Origin: an uncultured virus (IMG/VR IMGVR_UViG_3300005405_000008)
Taxonomy: Duplodnaviria; Heunggongvirae; Uroviricota; Caudoviricetes
Direction: 5' to 3' (one strand)
Virus record (IMG/VR): IMGVR_UViG_3300005405_000008
Location: 62,001-122,175 of that record
DNA length: 60,175 nucleotides
Within the stretch, counting starts at the first letter, position 1. Every line of letters starts with the position of its first letter. The position numbers and the translations under genes were made by a program. The notes below the pieces were generated by a model, which saw nothing but the letters and a program-made list of their open reading frames with translations, was not told the origin of the DNA and searched no databases. Positions 1 through 29,512 of the stretch are shown here, piece by piece.

Positions 1-205
1 ATTGCATATCAACTTTGCATACTTTATCTTGTTCAATTGTTTTTTCTAAACTAGTTAGACATTTTCTTGCATGATCTGCTGATACTTGTTCTCCGTATAA
101 TATTTCATAAACTTCAACTTTGTCTAAATCATATTCTTTTCTATTGGATAATAGTCTATCAGCAAATTGTAAAAATGACTCATTTTCTTTTCGTATATAT
201 TCCAA
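1..205 (-). CDS. N-terminal part of a YonJ-like phage protein, runs off the window
   Basis: TTG start after AGGAG; MEYIRKENESFLQFADRLLSNRKEYDLDKVEVYEILYGEQVSADHARK; position downstream of HU and YonK-like genes. Confidence 0.55.
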   Translation of the reverse strand, partial: MEYIRKENESFLQFADRLLSNRKEYDLDKVEVYEILYGEQVSADHARKCLTSLEKTIEQDKVCKVDMQ

Positions 206-250
206 ATAAATTCTCCTAAAGAAGTTATTTTATTTTCAAAATTAAAATAT

Positions 251-272
251 CCCCTAATCGACCAATAGGGGA
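251..272 (-). terminator. Intrinsic terminator-like hairpin
   Basis: CCCCTA...TAGGGG stem followed by an A/T-rich tract after the 273..455 ORF. Confidence 0.45.
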
Positions 273-455
273 TTAAATTTTCTCAAAATGTCCACAATCT
301 TCACATCTTAGAATTGTTTCGTTACAATAAAATTTAAGCCAGAAACGTAATTTACCACACACCGGACATTTAGTATCAGCATTTTCAATATCATAATTAT
401 TGTATTTGTTTAATTTATTTTCAATAGGCTGTTCTACTATTTTATTTGTCTTCAT
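273..455 (-). CDS. Small zinc-ribbon protein
   Basis: CPVC and CEDC pairs; AGGAG RBS upstream. Confidence 0.6.
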   Translation of the reverse strand: MKTNKIVEQPIENKLNKYNNYDIENADTKCPVCGKLRFWLKFYCNETILRCEDCGHFEKI

Positions 456-611
456 CTTTTATTATATTTCATCTCCTTATAAGAGAATAGGGGAGAGGGT
501 ATAATAAATTAAATAAGAGTACAGAATGAAAAGTTAACTGTGTCACACAATTTCTTTACACTCCATACTCTGTTATTGAAGGCAGTTTATGAAACTCCTT
601 CCATATTAGAT

Positions 612-832
612 GGGAGACATACGCCTCCATATAACGTGCCTAAAGCACAAACGACTTTTATAACCACCATAAAGGCGAAATATGAGATAGAGTCTCTTGA
701 TTAAACCCCAAGTATGTATCCATGAGAGATTGTATTTTTAACCGTAGTCAAACACAACTTTTATTCTCATGTGTAAGATGTGTATTCACAAACATCTTAT
801 TAAGTCTTAATTAATTCAGTCGGCGTAATTCC
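612..832 (-). ncRNA. Candidate structured RNA
   Basis: TACGCC (620-625) / GGCGTA (822-827) closing pair enclosing several hairpins; no ORF. Confidence 0.35.
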
Positions 833-855
833 TTTTAATAAATCAAAATTTATAT

Positions 856-1210
856 AATAACTTACTGCTTTCCAGCCCTGCGGATACTTTTGGGCAAGCA
901 TAATCATCCCAAACCGTTTTATCAGGGATTTAATCAATCTTTATTATTTACTATTTAAACCTTAAACTTTACACTTATAATAAACTTTGAATTTTTAACT
1001 TTAAGCGTTTAGATTTAAACTTTAATCTTTACAGAATTTTTGTTGTTTTGCTTTTGTATCATTTGATTTTAATTAAATCATATAATTTTCAAAGTAAACA
1101 TCCTGTTAAAGATGTAAATAATATGTACTTTCTTTATATTTATTAAACCAGTCTAAGTACATAAAAGACTTGTCAATTATGGTTTAAAGTTTTCGGAAAA
1201 CAGTAAGTAG
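856..1210 (-). ncRNA. Candidate ~350-nt structured RNA with heptamer repeat tract
   Basis: 13-14 bp closing helix 860-873 / 1195-1208 with a G-U pair on the minus strand; internal hairpins; about 13 tandem 7-mers at 936-1030. Confidence 0.65.
936..1030. repeat. Degenerate 7-bp tandem repeat, consensus AAACTTT
   Basis: aatcttt attattt actattt aaacctt aaacttt acactta taat aaacttt gaatttt taacttt aagcgtt tagattt aaacttt aatcttt. Confidence 0.75.
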
Positions 1211-1231
1211 TTATTTCTTAAGGATTATGGA

Positions 1232-1873
1232 TTAATATTCAATTTCTATTACAGTCAGAGCATTTGATGTGCTCAGCGTGGAATCGATCTCAGATTCAAA
1301 ATCAGAAATTTCTTTCTCTAATTCATCAATTTTTTCCTTAACTTTAATTGGATCTACAAATTCAAATGAATTATTAAGAATAAATTCTTTCCTAACTTTT
1401 TCAAGTTCATCAGTATTTGTCTTACCTTCTTTTGAACCAAATAATCCAATTACATAATTTTCAGCTTTTTGATTTAATGTTTCTCCATTTTCTTTATCTA
1501 TAATTTGAATAGAATGTACATAATGTTGGTTCATTGTGTTCATTAAAGTTTTCTTATATGCCATTCCACTATTTTTCATCTCAATTGCTTCTGCTACCGT
1601 CATTTCATTATCGCCAATTTTTACTTTTGTAGTAGCATTAGATAAAACAGTTGCTCTTTTAATGGCATTCCTGCGACTGATTAAGTCATTGGCTTTGTTC
1701 CAACTAGCTTGAATTTGCGTCTTGAATTCTTCTACTGATACACCATTGATTTTGTCGTTGGAATGTTTATTTGCTTTACAATATACTCCTTGGGAAATAG
1801 TTTTATCAATTTTAGCACCAATTACTTTGAGTTCAGATAATGCTTTATGGATTGTCATTGTTTCAGTTGTCAT
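1232..1873 (-). CDS. Conserved helical/coiled-coil phage protein, DIP1984-like
   Basis: 213 aa; MTIHKALSELK, SNATT, TVAEAI and terminal SNALTVIEI motifs. Confidence 0.7.
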   Translation of the reverse strand: MTTETMTIHKALSELKVIGAKIDKTISQGVYCKANKHSNDKINGVSVEEFKTQIQASWNKANDLISRRNAIKRATVLSNATTKVKIGDNEMTVAEAIEMKNSGMAYKKTLMNTMNQHYVHSIQIIDKENGETLNQKAENYVIGLFGSKEGKTNTDELEKVRKEFILNNSFEFVDPIKVKEKIDELEKEISDFESEIDSTLSTSNALTVIEIEY

Positions 1874-1981
1874 GTTTTGTTTGTCCCCTTTAATTTTAAA
1901 TTTTGATAAATTATTAGTAGGTTAGAGAGTTAGGAGAATAATTACTAACTATGATAACTTTATCCTAACTCTCTAAAAACG

Positions 1982-2131
1982 AATCAAACCACAATAGTAG
2001 GGCGACGCTCAGTTTATTTTATAAACTCTATATCCTTATTGATATAGTTCCTACATCTCTAATCCTTCATATAAAACATATGTTGGAGCGTTGGATGCCT
2101 GTTCCAAACCTTATTGTGGTTAGGTATGATT
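1982..2131 (-). ncRNA. Candidate rod-shaped structured RNA
   Basis: AACCACAATA (1987-1996) / TATTGTGGTT (2112-2121) closing stem; inner ACGCTC/GAGCGT stem; CTATATC/GATATAG hairpin. Confidence 0.45.
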
Positions 2132-2148
2132 AATTATTCAGATTTTTC

Positions 2149-2364
2149 TTATCCATTATCCTCACCAACTACATCTTCAATTTCTTCTTCTGTAAAAGAA
2201 AATTTAACATATTTCCCTGAGAAATTTTTCAGTAACTCAATTAGATTTTTAACACCTTCGTCGGGAATGTTAATTACTGCTATATTATTTTCAATAGTTA
2301 ATTCACCTTCAGTTGCTAGTTTATGAGTAATTTTCTTAGTTTCTGTAAGTTTTGATTTTGCCAT
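2149..2364 (-). CDS. YonK-like protein
   Basis: 71 aa; LLKNFSGKYVKFSFTEEE resembles the YonK C-terminus; position after HU. Confidence 0.6.
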   Translation of the reverse strand: MAKSKLTETKKITHKLATEGELTIENNIAVINIPDEGVKNLIELLKNFSGKYVKFSFTEEEIEDVVGEDNG

Positions 2365-2428
2365 TGTTTATTTATTCCACCTTTTATTTTTAATTTTTTA
2401 TTATTAGTTTGCCTTATGCTAATTTATA

Positions 2429-2503
2429 TGGAGCTGGATATCCTATTTGAACGGATGACATGATGCTTACAAGGCAACTGCTCTACCACTGAGCTAATCC
2501 AGC
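2429..2503 (-). tRNA. tRNA-Thr(UGU)
   Basis: GCTGGAT/ATCCAGC acceptor stem, GCTC/GAGC D-arm, CT-TGT-AA anticodon loop, TTCAAAT T-loop, encoded CCA. Confidence 0.88.
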
Positions 2504-2516
2504 ACTGTAAATTACT

Positions 2517-2795
2517 TTATTTCCCTTTAACCTTATCACTAAGGACTTTACCAGCCTTCCAGTGCGGAGCAACAGTTGCAGGAATTACCATAGGTTCTTT
2601 TGTAGCCGGATTCCGACCATTGCGTTCTGCGCGATCTTTTACAGAAAATGTTCCGAATCCAGTTAGAGATACCTTTTCTTTATTTACAAGTGCTTCTTCA
2701 ATTGCTTGTAATACTGCCGTTACTGCTTCGTCAGATGCTTTTTTCGTTGTATTAATTTTTTGGGCTACTACCGCTACGAGTTGTTCTTTATTCAT
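2517..2795 (-). CDS. hup: HU family DNA-binding protein (YonN-like)
   Basis: MNKEQLV, GFGTFSV and RNGRNPAT motifs. Confidence 0.95.
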   Translation of the reverse strand: MNKEQLVAVVAQKINTTKKASDEAVTAVLQAIEEALVNKEKVSLTGFGTFSVKDRAERNGRNPATKEPMVIPATVAPHWKAGKVLSDKVKGK

Positions 2796-3047
2796 GTTTA
2801 TTTTTATCCCCTTTTATTTTAATTTGTTTTTGTTGTTTTTGTTATTTTAGTCTGTATACCTTGTGAGTATCAGACTATGTGTTTTTAATCATGGTGCATT
2901 ATACTTTTTTATTAAGCATAAAGACCTCTCTTCAGTGATTCGATTGTTACTACCCTCCTTAAAGTTAATTAAAGAGGCGACAGATGAACAGTCTGTCCCC
3001 TTACTCCGTACAGTGAAACAGACTGAGGGAGCAAAAATTAATAATCC

Positions 3048-4298
3048 TTACATCTTATCAGATATATCTGCCATTCTACTTCTCCAAATATTAGGTAAAT
3101 GTACACATCCGAACATATCTTCATTTTTGAAAACTTCAATAGCTCGTAGAAGACCATTATTCCTTCCAACATAATCTATTTTATCTACCTGTTGATATGG
3201 ATCACCTTCTATAATGATTTTCGCATCTTTACTACATCTTGATAATGCAAGTTTCATTAAATCAGGCGTAGTATTTTGAGCTTCAGTTATATAAAGAATT
3301 TGATTATCAGTTATCTCCATACCTCTACTATCTGCCATAGGAATCAACCTAATCTTGTCTTGTGTAATTAAATTATTCACAATACTTTTATCACCAAATT
3401 TAGTAATAAGCATATTGCCGATAAACTGTTGCATTCCCTTTTCTATGGAGTTGCCACTGTAATAACCCATATCAACTGCACCACGAACTTTTGTGGGATT
3501 ATACATTATTACGCAGGAATCATATTTTTGGTTTTGTAATGCCCACATAATATACATAAGACTACTAAGTGATTTACCACTTCCTGGTTTACCTGTAATA
3601 GCAGTAAATTGATTATTATGTAAACTATCAATACATAACTCTTGGTATATATCTTTTGGTTTTAAATTTCCAAACATCATACTTTTAAAATCTTTTTTTA
3701 CAATACTTTTAAACCCATTTGATGTCCAACGATATTTATCAACTATTTCATTATTAACCTGAACTAATAAATACTCATTGATATTCATATTCCAAAGATT
3801 TGATTTTGCTTCTGATTGATACCAATTAGCAAGTTCATTTTCTGTCATTTGGATGGTCTTATATCCTGTGTATTTTTCACCATTAGATTCCGTAGGTTCA
3901 AATTTACTATAAGGAATACCTAAATCCTTACATTTTTGCCTAAACAATATGTCATTACTATAAGCAATAAATTTATTATCATTTTTCCACATTTTATATA
4001 AAATAGAGATTATTTTATTATCCATATTATCTTTATCAAAGTTTTCTGGAAGATCGTAATCAGTCTCACTAATAAGATATGTAATCTTGTCCTCATTAGC
4101 ATCTATATATCTACACGCTCTTCTGGCCTGAAATTTTGTTTCTTCTGTTTTTCCATTCTTCCTTAAATTGTCCATCTCTCCTGCAACATAACCACTAAGG
4201 AAGATATGATCAAACTCTTCAAAAACTTCTTTTGGGTGATCCATTAATACACACGAATCTATATATTGTTGATTGATTGTGTATGGTTCATCGGGCAA
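3048..4298 (-). CDS. phoH: PIN-PhoH family ATPase
   Basis: N-terminal PIN (IDSCVLM, EMDNL, D-x-x-I, SNDILFR); Walker A GKPGSGKS; EAQN; GDPYQQVD; RS motif. Confidence 0.9.
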   Translation of the reverse strand: MPDEPYTINQQYIDSCVLMDHPKEVFEEFDHIFLSGYVAGEMDNLRKNGKTEETKFQARRACRYIDANEDKITYLISETDYDLPENFDKDNMDNKIISILYKMWKNDNKFIAYSNDILFRQKCKDLGIPYSKFEPTESNGEKYTGYKTIQMTENELANWYQSEAKSNLWNMNINEYLLVQVNNEIVDKYRWTSNGFKSIVKKDFKSMMFGNLKPKDIYQELCIDSLHNNQFTAITGKPGSGKSLSSLMYIMWALQNQKYDSCVIMYNPTKVRGAVDMGYYSGNSIEKGMQQFIGNMLITKFGDKSIVNNLITQDKIRLIPMADSRGMEITDNQILYITEAQNTTPDLMKLALSRCSKDAKIIIEGDPYQQVDKIDYVGRNNGLLRAIEVFKNEDMFGCVHLPNIWRSRMADISDKM

Positions 4299-4592: not shown

Positions 4593-4753
4593 ATTGTTAT
4601 ATTGATGCTCCTTTGGAGTTTATTATTTTGTTTTATTATAAATTTACAAAGTGATCGACCACACCTTACAAATTATGAATATAATAAATTAAATATTGGT
4701 TGAAACCATTGTTATAATTGTATTTCTATTATATTCATATATACGGATTTACA

Positions 4754-5566
4754 TTAAGTGCTTGTAACTATTGTTACAGCAGTGTTACAGGTGTTTTCAG
4801 AATGATTACATTTTGATTTTTCTCTGAAATTGTGCACATTTATACGAACTTTTTCTTTTCTAATTTCCTTTGCACATTCTTGGCAGTATTTATGAGTAAC
4901 ATTTGTAGGCAGAAATGGAGAACAACATTTTACACAATAATCTACATTTTCACCTTTATAACTCAAATACTCTAAAACAAAGTTTTCATATTTTTCGATT
5001 GTAAATTCAGGCTCTTTTGTTTCATCAACAAAATTAACTTTTAATGTTACAAATACAGTCAAATCAAACAAATCTGTTTCTTTTAATTTTCCTATATAAT
5101 CTTCTCTCTGTTCTTTGTCACTTCTAACCTTTGAATTTATAAACATTTCTTTTAAATTATTACAATAATATTCATCTTTCTTACTTTTCTTTTTCAATCT
5201 ATATTTATCCATCTTGCTTAATACTAAGGCAACAAATGCAATCGTTTCTAATTTCGTGTCGTTTAGAGATTCTATTTTATCAAGCTCACTCTTAGTTATA
5301 GGTATCGGTGGTATATCTACTAAAGTATTTTTCTTTTGAACACCATACCTTGATGCTTTAATTATCATTTCTAAATGCAATACTTCATTATATTTTGGTA
5401 AAAACTTTTTACAAAATTCCTTGAGTTTTTCTTTGATTGCATCCGTCTTTAATCCATTTATCTTATTATAATACTTTGCTAATATTTTTAACTCCATTGT
5501 ATATCTATCTCCGATAAAACCTTTTATCAGCATTTTTTTAGTATATTCTAATTCATTAAATATCAT
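4754..5566 (-). CDS. Hypothetical protein with C-terminal zinc ribbon, coupled to the RNAP gene
   Basis: CVKC and CQEC pairs; start overlaps the RNAP stop. Confidence 0.75.
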   Translation of the reverse strand: MIFNELEYTKKMLIKGFIGDRYTMELKILAKYYNKINGLKTDAIKEKLKEFCKKFLPKYNEVLHLEMIIKASRYGVQKKNTLVDIPPIPITKSELDKIESLNDTKLETIAFVALVLSKMDKYRLKKKSKKDEYYCNNLKEMFINSKVRSDKEQREDYIGKLKETDLFDLTVFVTLKVNFVDETKEPEFTIEKYENFVLEYLSYKGENVDYCVKCCSPFLPTNVTHKYCQECAKEIRKEKVRINVHNFREKSKCNHSENTCNTAVTIVTST

Positions 5567-8354
5567 ATATAACCTCCTGTAATTTGAATTTATCTCCTAA
5601 ATATTCGATTGTACCATTGTTATCTAAAATAGGAATAAAAACTTTATCTTGTTTATTTTTTTCTATATTTACTAAAACATCTTTTCCAAATACATCCCAT
5701 AAGAAATCTTTCTTATCTTTTGGATGCAATTCATAAGTTATTTCTGTAGCATAATTTATTAATTCTGAGGTGTTTGAACATATTTTATATGCCTCAATGC
5801 GTATTTGCTTATAAAATAATTGTAAATCATCATATGATTCTTCATCATATTTATCTTTCGTATATGATCTTTGCTTTGTTTTCTCATGAATTCTTTTCTT
5901 TCCACAAAAATCTTTATACAACTTCAGAACTTTTGAAAATGTAACATCATTTTTTTCTATATCTTTATCTTTTAATATTTCAACAATATCAGCATTATTA
6001 TCTATACTTACTTCTGTTTTTATATCCTTACAAGCATATTCCATATGCCAACACAATTTGTTCATTACACTTGGAGATATACTAAGTGGTAGGTTGTGAT
6101 AATGAAATCTCATATAATCATTTTCTTCTGGTGTTTTTCTTCTTTTTTCTTTAAGTTGTTCTAAAGACATTTTAAAAATTACTTTACAATATAAATTAGC
6201 TTTTTCTATATATTCTAAATACTTCTTTCTATATTTAGGGTATATCCATCCCTGAAAATATGGTTTTCTATGAATAACTAATTTATTTAGAAATTTTTTC
6301 TCTTTAATTGATTCTGGTGTATCCTTTTCTTTACCTTTAATTACTTTCCCATCTTCATCACATTCATCCTTGTATCTAATTGTTTGATAAGTAATCCAAT
6401 CTTTAGGGAAATCTTGTACCTGAACACCTTTTGATTTATCTATTGCATTCCCTTGGAGCATACGAGTTATTTTCAATCTCTCTAATATGGTATTATGTGA
6501 TTTACCTCCTTTATGAAATTGTTCCAACATAGTATACATATCTGTAGAATAATTAGTAATAGTTCCTATATCATTACTAAAACTTAATAAATCGGCTTGA
6601 AACATTGCTTCTTCTGTAAGTTTATCTATGGGAGCAGTTTTCTTTTCGTATGTAATAGGTAATGTATCTTTGTGAGAACATCTTAAGAATACTGGATTAC
6701 TGGAAGTAAATACCAAATCTAGGTCGAAATCTGAATCTGCATGACGAATTGTGTCTAATCCTAGTGTTGGATAGATTATACCAGTTGTTTGATATCTATA
6801 CCAATGATTAACCACATTATGATTTTGAAGTTTTAGTATATTATGCTCTGAGTAATGAGTAAGAGGGCTTCTACACGCATCAACACTTGTAACATTCTTA
6901 TTATTCCAATATGCTGAATAATGTTCTCCTTCATTAAGCAATCCTGTACAATCTTCCGGTTTTTCACCAAATATATTTTGGCATAAACTAAACGGGTCTG
7001 CTAACATAGTTTGGTAATTTCCTTGAATAAGAACTTTTCCTGCATAAGAGTGTTGAATCTTTTTTCTTATACTATTCATTATTTTAGTTTGTATATATGT
7101 GTCTTTTGCTAGAGTATTATTTAGTAAGATTGCTTTTACAATAGGATTATGAATGTCATTTATGTTTTCTATTTTTTCTACACCTTTGCCTAATAAATAT
7201 AAAGAAGTTTTAATAGCATCTGCACCTAAAATATCTTTAAACCAATCTACATTAAATTTGCAAAGTTCTTCAATATCATTATCTTCCATATCTAAGGTCT
7301 GTAAATACTGATAATTTGTCAAGCAATAATTATTGTTGCGTTGGGGAGCTACATGACATACTCCCCAAGACAAATTATTATCCTCGCAATTTTTAGTAAA
7401 TTCCTCAAGTGACTTATAATTCTTCCATAGTTTTAGTTGGCTAGTGGTCAGGAATATATCGTATTCCCTAGAATCTCTTTCAGCACCCCATGCATCAATA
7501 AATTTGCATGTTCCAGAAATTTCATTAGTGTACTCATCCACTGGGTAGGAAATTAGCATCCCTTTAATAAACGAATTTCTGATTCCGAAAAATCCTGGAA
7601 TATAATCATTAATTTCTAAATCCTCTGCCCAAAGTTTTGCACCACGTATTGTTAAAATACCTTCGCCATCATGAGGTTTTAAGTCTATTGAATGATTATC
7701 TAATTCTTCCACCCAAGTTTTTTCTTCATCCTGAAATACAAAATCTACTTTTCTTTTAATATTTACCTCTAAGTCTTTTACAACACAGAACTTTAAATTT
7801 CTTACTTTATATGTACTACTACTGTAGAGTGCGAAATAAGCATTAAACTTATTCGCACTGAAGTTTTTTTCATTATCATATCCATTTTCCAATTTTGATT
7901 TAATTCTATTAATAGTTTCTTCTTCTACAAAAATAACTTTACTGTTACGAGAATGTCCACTACCACACATGAAACGTCTAAAAGTCTTATTATTTACAGT
8001 TATACTATCAGCAAACATGTTCTTATATTGACTATTTGAATTTATATTTGTTACAATTACTTCTGGAACAAATAATATATCATCAATTTGTTTTTGAATA
8101 TTTTCCAATGCTTTGATGTTTGCGTCTGATGATTTTTGAAATTTAATTATTTTCTTAATTTTATTTAACTCTTGAAGTTTTTCAGTATCAACCCCTATGT
8201 GATTCCTGATTTGTCTAATTAATTCACTATCTCCAATAGATATTAGTTCTTTGTTTTTCCTTGCTTGATCTGGAGTTAGTGTTATATTATACTTATACTC
8301 TTTTAATCTAGAAGATTTAATACGAAAAACATAGAATTGTTGTTGCTTAATCAA
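5556..8354 (-). CDS. yonO: YonO-like single-subunit DNA-dependent RNA polymerase (RdRP-like double-psi barrel)
   Basis: 932 aa; DGEG, RNSFIKG, CRSP...SEH, catalytic DSDFDLD, IGTITN, QGNAIDKSK motifs. Confidence 0.85.
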   Translation of the reverse strand: MIKQQQFYVFRIKSSRLKEYKYNITLTPDQARKNKELISIGDSELIRQIRNHIGVDTEKLQELNKIKKIIKFQKSSDANIKALENIQKQIDDILFVPEVIVTNINSNSQYKNMFADSITVNNKTFRRFMCGSGHSRNSKVIFVEEETINRIKSKLENGYDNEKNFSANKFNAYFALYSSSTYKVRNLKFCVVKDLEVNIKRKVDFVFQDEEKTWVEELDNHSIDLKPHDGEGILTIRGAKLWAEDLEINDYIPGFFGIRNSFIKGMLISYPVDEYTNEISGTCKFIDAWGAERDSREYDIFLTTSQLKLWKNYKSLEEFTKNCEDNNLSWGVCHVAPQRNNNYCLTNYQYLQTLDMEDNDIEELCKFNVDWFKDILGADAIKTSLYLLGKGVEKIENINDIHNPIVKAILLNNTLAKDTYIQTKIMNSIRKKIQHSYAGKVLIQGNYQTMLADPFSLCQNIFGEKPEDCTGLLNEGEHYSAYWNNKNVTSVDACRSPLTHYSEHNILKLQNHNVVNHWYRYQTTGIIYPTLGLDTIRHADSDFDLDLVFTSSNPVFLRCSHKDTLPITYEKKTAPIDKLTEEAMFQADLLSFSNDIGTITNYSTDMYTMLEQFHKGGKSHNTILERLKITRMLQGNAIDKSKGVQVQDFPKDWITYQTIRYKDECDEDGKVIKGKEKDTPESIKEKKFLNKLVIHRKPYFQGWIYPKYRKKYLEYIEKANLYCKVIFKMSLEQLKEKRRKTPEENDYMRFHYHNLPLSISPSVMNKLCWHMEYACKDIKTEVSIDNNADIVEILKDKDIEKNDVTFSKVLKLYKDFCGKKRIHEKTKQRSYTKDKYDEESYDDLQLFYKQIRIEAYKICSNTSELINYATEITYELHPKDKKDFLWDVFGKDVLVNIEKNKQDKVFIPILDNNGTIEYLGDKFKLQEVIYDI

Positions 8355-28970: not shown

Positions 28971-29512
28971 TACCAATAAATCTATTAATTCATTGGGTGA
29001 AAGGATGATTAAAAATGAGTTTAAAGGATGTTAAACAGGGATTATTCGATGAATATATTGACAGGGGAATGTCAGAAAAAGACTTTGATAAGGTATTTAA
29101 GAAAGCAATGGATAGCGAATATGTAAGAAAAGCAATATCAGATGCTTTTAATGATGAGCATAATATTTTATTAGAAAAAAGAATGTTTAGATAATTTTAA
29201 CCCAATCAATAGCAAGTTTGCTAGGAATAGAAAGGAGTTTTAAAAAATGATTAAGTTAATATGTAAAAAGTCAGTTCATGGTTTTATCGAGGGTGAAATG
29301 TATTATGGACATTTTGATAAAGATTATAATTTTCACTCTGTTAATCTTAAAAGCGAAGAATATGTTTGTGAAAATGAAGAATGGAAAGAAATATTTGATG
29401 TAAAACATTAACACTGGTCTGAGTCGGTATAATACGCCTTAAGCTCAGAGCGTTAGCAGGGTTTATAACAATCCTGCTAGGTGGTATCAAAATAACAAGG
29501 AGGTGTAAGATT

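Follow-up and report, generated by a model that had tools for sequence, protein, structure and literature searches.

Phased short repeats are a feature of systems such as TRAP and its trp leader or the CsrA-CsrB pair, in which oligomeric proteins or sponges are involved, and sponge RNAs of the CsrB type carry many such repeated single-stranded sites. Bacterial and phage Y RNAs, the partners of Rsr (Ro), have a terminal stem and sometimes a tRNA-like module, and are encoded beside the gene of their protein partner. ToxI, the RNA of type III toxin-antitoxin systems, consists of tandem units of about 36 nt, each of which is pseudoknotted. RAGATH-27 (RF03100) is an orphan motif, and we take the name RAGATH to denote motifs near genes linked to self-cleaving ribozymes. 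GOLLD and ROOL have, to our knowledge, no fixed partner gene, and we know of no RNA family in which a pseudoknotted clamp closed over a long range occurs together with phased 7-nt repeats, tRNAs nested inside and a protein of its own. In the available text of one study, GOLLD and ROOL are described as large, pseudoknot-rich RNAs of phages and prophages that often lie beside tRNA genes (PMC5737381), and in that of another as RNA-only homo-oligomers (PMC12286853).

The locus described here lies in a window of 60,175 nucleotides (the whole stretch of DNA that was analysed), which comes from an IMG/VR virus record of 122 kb, is AT-rich and phage-like, and also encodes HU, a PIN-PhoH fusion, a tRNA-Thr and a Pistol ribozyme. 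An ORF for a 213-aa helical protein (1232-1873, minus strand), assigned by profile match to phrog_1491, the T5.085 family, is followed by 775 bases without an ORF. The approximately 350-nt stretch 3' of this gene was confirmed to be a real, pseudoknotted RNA with a 7-base repeat array. As delimited by fold z-score, covariation and conservation, the whole structured RNA covers about 347 nt (861-1207, on the minus strand, as are all features of the RNA given below), from the 5' strand to the 3' strand of its closing helix, P1.

The 5' end of this RNA matches the Rfam model of RAGATH-27 over its full length (model positions 1-86 at 1122-1207; 59 bits, E 9.7e-7). The window copy does not reach the gathering score of 76.1 bits, while RAGATH-27 at the orthologous site in Dulem virus 39, the named relative nearest to the window, directly 3' of the homologous gene, scores 77.2 bits. 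All 86 of the 86 model positions are aligned in the window, including the conserved 5' sequence, and the pairs of the 7-bp hairpin are all standard. The gathering score is an operational threshold, and homology of the window copy to RAGATH-27 is supported even so. The initial annotation had recognised no named family for the RNA; this does not hold for the 5' 86 nt, one quarter of the RNA, which RAGATH-27 covers. In the Rfam model the first 46 nt are unpaired. These are the 5' strands of helices P1, P1b and P1c, and RAGATH-27 is thus the tip of a larger RNA. The window RNA and RAGATH-27 have the hairpin and the ribozyme-rich phage context in common, with a Pistol ribozyme in the window (29413-29486, plus strand; 47.1 bits against a gathering score of 34.5) and a hammerhead II ribozyme at the locus of Dulem virus 39 (L001, 483-547; 59.2 bits). 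They differ in that the Rfam model has 86 nt and an unpaired 5' part, whereas here three covarying helices lead to a domain 300-400 nt downstream.

The RAGATH-27 model finds only some members of this larger family. At E<=1 it misses the copies in phages D-1873, Jenst, phiCD211, DU_PP_V and PVP-SE1, at E<=0.1 those in T5, Skimmer, PK16, a Sporosarcina locus and a Tenacibaculum locus, and Rfam places no family on distant copies of the RNA. The RNA is mostly unannotated, and databases list its first 86 bases only. No paper on RAGATH-27 was found in a literature search that did not extend to the Weinberg 2017 supplement, a possible place of description, and broader searches found no paper on the RNA. 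What was already known is the 5' 86 nt, as RAGATH-27; what is new here is the full architecture of the RNA and its linkage to a gene. RAGATH-27 can thereby be placed in a whole structure and linked to a gene partner, and T5 in E. coli K-12 offers a tractable system for its study.

A closing helix between segments about 330 nt apart had been proposed in the initial annotation. It is present as a 20-nt inverted repeat of 85% complementarity (854-873/1195-1214) and is used by the MFE fold of the minus strand, which has a z-score of -5.4 versus -2.5 for the plus strand. RNAalifold, applied to an alignment of 18 non-redundant relatives (A1) from which the consensus helices were taken, pairs the 5' 46 nt with a domain lying 300-400 nt further 3'. 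P1 (14 bp; 1207-1194/861-874) has compensatory changes in 10 of its 14 pairs and is paired in 99.2% of cells, and a conserved GGCU stands just before its 3' strand (861-874). Further inward, P1b (five pairs; 1190-1186/886-890) has four compensatory pairs and a sequence that differs per lineage. P1c (eight pairs; 1181-1174/899-906) has seven compensatory pairs, is 97.9% paired and reads AUCUUAC/GUAAGAU in its T5 version; its 3' strand, 899-906, lies in the loop of hairpin P3. The 3' domain (876-931), delimited by covariation and by a score of 67.5 bits with R1, a model of this domain, consists of an AAAUCC motif, P2 (five pairs; 927-923/876-880; three compensatory, 100% paired) and P3 (four pairs; 910-907/892-895; three compensatory). 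P2 and P3, to which the stems noted initially at 877-927 correspond and which both covary, cross P1b and P1c, and the fold is thus pseudoknotted. Single-stranded nucleotides are invariant at GA after P1, AAAUCC and GGCU. A UAAACCA/UGGUUUA stem, also proposed initially, is present in the window, but it is missing from relatives such as L001 and L015 and competes with the covarying P1b and P1c.

On A1, the five helices are paired in 96.8% of 647 cells, as compared with a mean of 81.5% for shuffled controls (0/500 shuffles reach the observed value) and 35-44% for slid controls, and compensatory changes on both sides occur in 27 of the 36 pairs. G-U pairs account for 99 of the 647 cells (15%), and pairing drops from 96.8% to 81.5% when the opposite strand is read. 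These 99 cells indicate that the fold is kept only on the gene strand; the wobble pairs of the closing helix likewise form on the gene strand only, as the initial annotation had noted for its single mismatch. P1 forms in 28 of 28 lineages, with a mean of -19.9 kcal/mol for cognate duplexes versus -9.1 +/- 3.7 kcal/mol for non-cognate ones. Cognate and non-cognate duplexes were not discriminated for P1b and P1c (-15.0 versus -11.7 kcal/mol; run length 7.4 versus 7.0), and these two helices therefore rest on column covariation and on their listing lineage by lineage.

The same data bear on whether the element acts as DNA, for instance as an iteron replication origin, as a site for packaging or as a MITE bounded by terminal inverted repeats. 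Its AT-richness, short tandem repeats and 20-nt inverted repeat at the ends are what such an element would have. However, the 15% of G-U cells and the fall in pairing on the other strand (81.5% versus 96.8%), the compensatory changes in crossing helices, and the fixed place and strand relative to one gene all speak for RNA, and R1 scores 67.5 bits at the RNA versus 13.3-13.6 bits (E>2) for its only other matches in the window. A DNA-level function is extremely improbable, and a MITE or an origin is rejected on the G-U strand bias, the compensatory changes and the fixed position and strand.

An H-type pseudoknot (1122-1170) lies 3' of the 5' strand of P1c and has a stem A (1166-1170/1150-1154), a stem B (1157-1163/1122-1128) and an A-rich third loop. 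The complementarity of 1155-1163 to 1122-1130, initially suggested as a possible pseudoknot, is the hairpin stem of the RAGATH-27 model and forms half of this structure. The pseudoknot score was matched by 6/100 shuffles for the window and by 1/100 each for T5, DU_PP_V and Dulem virus 39, and an automated search found such a fold clearly in about half of the 28 lineages and ambiguously in the others.

After a variable region (1033-1121), marked by alignment gaps and containing a tRNA gene in some relatives, follows the repeat array (936-1032), in which about 12-13 heptads share an AAAG core and which is defined by TRF, by a lag-7 test and by an invariant or nearly invariant A per 7 nt. The initial count of about 13 phased AAAGUUU-like heptamers agrees well with this. 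TRF reports period 7 at 954-1031, with 11.6 copies and 66% matches, and lag-7 identity in the window array is 0.55 versus 0.33 at other lags, a value that none of 500 shuffles reaches. Among 27 arrays tested, the best autocorrelation lag is 7 or 14 in 22, and the observed lag-7 value is reached by 0/500 shuffles in 17. An A is invariant or nearly so at each 7 nt through six heptads in 28 lineages (1023, 1016, 1009, 1002, 995 and 988 in the window), and the heptad register is kept across hosts of three phyla (Bacillota, Pseudomonadota and Bacteroidota), the array being found in their phages or prophages. The downstream helix (P1 in 28/28 lineages) and, in most of the arrays tested, the 7-nt periodicity are retained in homologues. 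The array region has no conserved pairing, and its core is clade-specific, with UUAAG in Vibrio and UUCAG in Aeromonas.

Multiple phased short single-stranded motifs suggest, by analogy with TRAP and CsrA, multivalent protein binding. The array differs from the targets of those proteins in its period of 7 and its AAAG core, as opposed to GAG/UAG triplets or GGA in loops, and the partner in the window is a predicted helical bundle unrelated to TRAP or CsrA. In particular, GGA in hairpin loops, the hallmark of the CsrB type, was not found here: the core is AAAG, or AAG in some clades, and lacks conserved pairing. A related possibility is that the RNA titrates, as a decoy or sponge, some host factor such as RNase E or Y (through AG/UUU-like sites), Hfq, or the ribosome (through the Shine-Dalgarno-like AAAGG). 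The position of the module in an accessory, tRNA-rich region and its many phased A/G-rich single-stranded sites would be in keeping with a sponge. Bacillota, Pseudomonadota and Bacteroidota hosts, however, differ in their RNases and in Shine-Dalgarno use, and yet phages or prophages from all three have the same array; moreover, the core varies by phage clade, and the sole factor seen to co-vary with the array in presence is the phage protein. We therefore consider a sponge improbable. The clade-specific cores are better explained by a phage-encoded reader than by a host factor.

The protein encoded next to the RNA belongs to phrog_1491 (E 1.5e-54 over residues 3-212). Its AF2 model (pLDDT 88.9) predicts a long helical bundle with a small capping sheet made of an N-terminal strand, a C-terminal strand and a hairpin. 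Conservation is good in the N-terminal half, which is basic and includes the sequence RRNAIKRA, while the protein as a whole is slightly acidic (29 K+R, 33 D+E). The best structural match of the model is 3kdq, a protein for which no function is known (Z 10.7, rmsd 7.9); the other matches are generic coiled coils, and no known RNA-binding relative is among them. Pfam, NCBIfam and PADLOC gave sub-threshold noise only, PDB sequence and profile searches gave no match, and Foldseek against the PDB gave none at E<=1e-3. BFVD returned uncharacterised family members only and the ESM Atlas unnamed viral clusters only. The family is labelled 'tail fiber protein' in phrog_1491 and in the RefSeq records of T5, PVP-SE1, Jenst and phiCD211. 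This widespread label is without support, since a helical bundle is predicted and the model has no tail-fibre-like structural match, and the annotation should be corrected. A literature search found nothing on T5.085, on phrog_1491 or on a stable T5 RNA near tRNA genes. The T5 anti-defence protein Rad was considered as a candidate for T5.085 and rejected, as Rad is a different, 189-aa TOPRIM protein in the available text of its report (10.1101/2023.03.15.532788).

Y RNAs resemble the window RNA in being closed by a 5'/3' terminal stem, in sometimes including a tRNA-like module and in adjoining a partner gene. The protein, however, is not a Ro/TROVE ring, as judged by Pfam, and the RNA is three times longer and carries a repeat array. 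ToxI is similar as a tandemly repeated RNA beside a protein partner gene; here, in contrast, 7-nt units lie within one large fold, the gene comes first, and structure and family searches found no toxin-like fold. Rfam models and ARAGORN likewise gave no match to RNase P RNA, tmRNA, 6S RNA or Y RNA in the window.

The module is common. By tblastn, the gene was found in 738 of 50,697 phage records, and the protein family has 3270 representatives at 50% identity, mostly of 203-234 aa among the matches listed. A helix scan of close loci found the closing helix 3' of the gene in 74 of 77, and the remaining three hold the RNA with variant motifs, which brings the count to 77/77. In large phages, additional CGAAAAC words some 1 kb downstream were considered as further copies and dismissed, the helix scan having found one RNA per locus. 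When 13 named phages were sampled from the 738 tblastn matches, 12 had, 3' of the gene, an RNA built on the same plan and 290-440 nt long (D-1873, Jenst, phiCD211, DU_PP_V, PVP-SE1, T5 with T5.085, phiPsa300, Skimmer, PK16, Simmy50, Aeromonas phage 4_4572 and SYP). In Bacillus phage KLEB27-3 and at locus L240 the gene is present and the RNA was not detected. In bacterial genomes, R1 at E<=0.01 matches 52 of 63 loci, always on the gene strand and downstream of the gene; three loci have no downstream DNA, which leaves 60 usable ones, and with two weaker in-place matches and five found by a helix-plus-motif scan the total is 59/60. A pattern search of viral contigs that started from the RNA gave 82 matches in 80 loci, 57 with both helix and gene, 25 with neither, which are chance matches, and none with one alone; in all 57 real matches the gene ends 15-35 nt upstream. 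The module is kept across phages as far apart as those of Clostridium and Bacillus on one side and T5-like, Vibrio and Pseudomonas phages on the other. This co-occurrence in both directions strongly backs the two-part protein-RNA module that the initial annotation had proposed.

It also bears on whether the RNA acts alone, as a ribozyme or as a GOLLD/ROOL-like RNA-only assembly, with the protein merely co-transcribed or a helper such as a chaperone. The very ornate fold, with several pseudoknots and invariant single-stranded GA, AAAUCC and GGCU, would suit such an RNA, as would its neighbours, phage tRNAs and ribozymes, which are those described for GOLLD and ROOL in the available text of PMC5737381. 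GOLLD, ROOL and OLE are RNA-only oligomers according to the available text of PMC12286853. For GOLLD or ROOL, however, no report describes so nearly obligate a tie to a single adjacent protein family in both directions, and phased single-stranded repeats are hard to account for without a reader. In addition, neither Rfam model matches (no hit at E<=10 in window positions 1-3000, nor at the gathering score window-wide), and the window RNA is smaller than these homo-oligomers and has a dedicated neighbour gene and a 7-nt array. Action of the RNA alone is accordingly unlikely. Phage K lncRNAs near tRNAs (PMC9241854) were also compared, and R1 has no match to them.

The T5-type RNA occurs in 444 phage records, in 340 of them at >=95% identity, and among 40 matches listed of the 444, 35 have no feature under the match, three have hypothetical-protein features (one also a promoter) and two lie in wholly unannotated records. 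Another T5 record, AY692264 (113,238 bp), contains it with 100% identity; this record is presumably that of a deletion strain, which would place the RNA outside a deletable island. Small ORFs called inside the RNA are flagged here as probably spurious. Dulem virus 39 (L001), for example, has a small 'hypothetical protein' ORF inside the RNA (4657-4767, plus strand) and opposite-strand ORFs at 4870-4983 and 4968-5114 that overlap the 3' end of the RNA and the adjoining tRNA; all three are probably spurious calls.

The gene often lies within tRNA arrays, with a tRNA at <=1.5 kb in 8 of the 13 named phages. In the window, tRNA-Thr(UGU) (2429-2503, minus strand) lies upstream of the gene, and the same tRNA-Thr in L002, L015, L016, L042, L051 and L061 indicates that gene order is conserved. 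Seven relatives have a tRNA gene nested within the RNA, past the 5' pseudoknot and ahead of the heptad array (L014 3273-3346, L015 3320-3392, L016 3316-3390, L051 3326-3400, L061 3302-3374, L042 3327-3399 and L002 4833-4905). These tRNAs have differing anticodons, for Ile, Gly, Phe and Leu, with some undetermined, and they suggest that the mature RNA may be two pieces joined by P1, P1b and P1c. Pieces with a T-arm-like GGTTCGA followed by an acceptor/D-arm-like segment were noted in L087 (about 1480-1560), L122 (about 1480-1560), L175 (about 1950-2020) and L210 (about 2230-2290). ARAGORN calls no tRNA at these four pieces, which may be permuted or split tRNA-like modules within the RNA.

Transcription signals are informative for a few loci. 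In phiPsa300 and Vibrio phage Skimmer, a promoter-like site precedes the gene and a terminator-like site comes after the RNA; a terminator scan flagged sites after the RNA in two of four loci, and those in Jenst and the Sporosarcina locus were seen by eye only. Around the gene and RNA of the window, neither a promoter-like nor a terminator-like site was found. The sequencing runs listed as containing the window are DNA metagenomes only, with no RNA run among them. A cis-acting 3' UTR, serving as an mRNA stability element or an autoregulatory operator, would be expected where the RNA is found, always 15-90 nt past the stop codon and on the same strand, with no terminator found between gene and RNA and one directly after the RNA in some lineages. 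However, a multi-pseudoknot fold of 300-470 nt, kept from Bacillota phages to T5, exceeds the needs of a stabiliser, other DNA parts the gene from the RNA in L012 and L180, and excision of a nested tRNA would free the 3' domain from the mRNA. A purely cis-acting role is for these reasons decidedly unlikely.

The reading that we prefer is a two-part system of gene and RNA, in which the heptads are bound by the helical protein and the role is related to tRNA or translation; we give it slightly less than an even chance. The RNA and the T5.085-family gene upstream of it share a strand. Both would probably be part of one transcript, and the RNA would probably act together with the protein. It would work as a clamp, the 5' 46 nt zipping through P1, P1b and P1c onto the 3' domain 300-400 nt away, with these helices crossing the local P2 and P3 and the H-type pseudoknot following the 5' strands, and would so present the array, in which about 12 AAAG heptads are single-stranded. 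The helical protein encoded next door may then bind the heptads in several copies and form a defined ribonucleoprotein, which might serve a tRNA- or translation-related part of the infection programme. Gene adjacency alone is no proof of binding; we infer binding of the heptads from the obligate linkage together with the conserved single-stranded register in three phyla and the clade-specific cores. By analogy with proteins that read phased repeats, the protein may polymerise on the array, as the initial annotation had suggested. More tentatively, and as something possible rather than probable, the module may be an undescribed, ancient, phage-specific ribonucleoprotein in which about a dozen copies of the T5.085-family protein coat the 7-nt array on the pseudoknotted clamp and whose action bears on the supply of tRNA, on translation or on host defence. 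RAGATH-27 would then be no more than its 5' tip, a tRNA would sometimes lie inside it, and its range would take in phages of Clostridium, Bacillus and Vibrio as well as T5, Seunavirus and jumbo Erwinia phages.

Other RNAs and ORF-free stretches were observed near these loci. Brevibacillus phage Jenst (L166) has a skipping-rope RNA between gene and RNA (2134-2211; 67.6 bits) and a BsrG match at 2669-2943 (119.1 bits), and L165 has a drum RNA at 2913-3020 (47.7 bits). In the window, a second ORF-free stretch of 400 nt (456-855, minus strand) lies beyond the RNA and has a locally raised G+C content. Rfam gave nothing on it besides a chance-level snoRNA match, and a 52-nt block with two hairpin-like palindromes (612-663) is the only part of it in common with L008 and L124. 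Upstream, the gene has an ORF-free leader of 275 nt on its 5' side (1874-2148, minus strand), with a 17-nt inverted repeat (1922-1938/1960-1976) and a chance-level skipping-rope match in Rfam (15.4 bits). Still further upstream are the PIN-PhoH fusion (3048-4298, minus strand) and a 932-aa ORF of no recognised family (5556-8354, minus strand).
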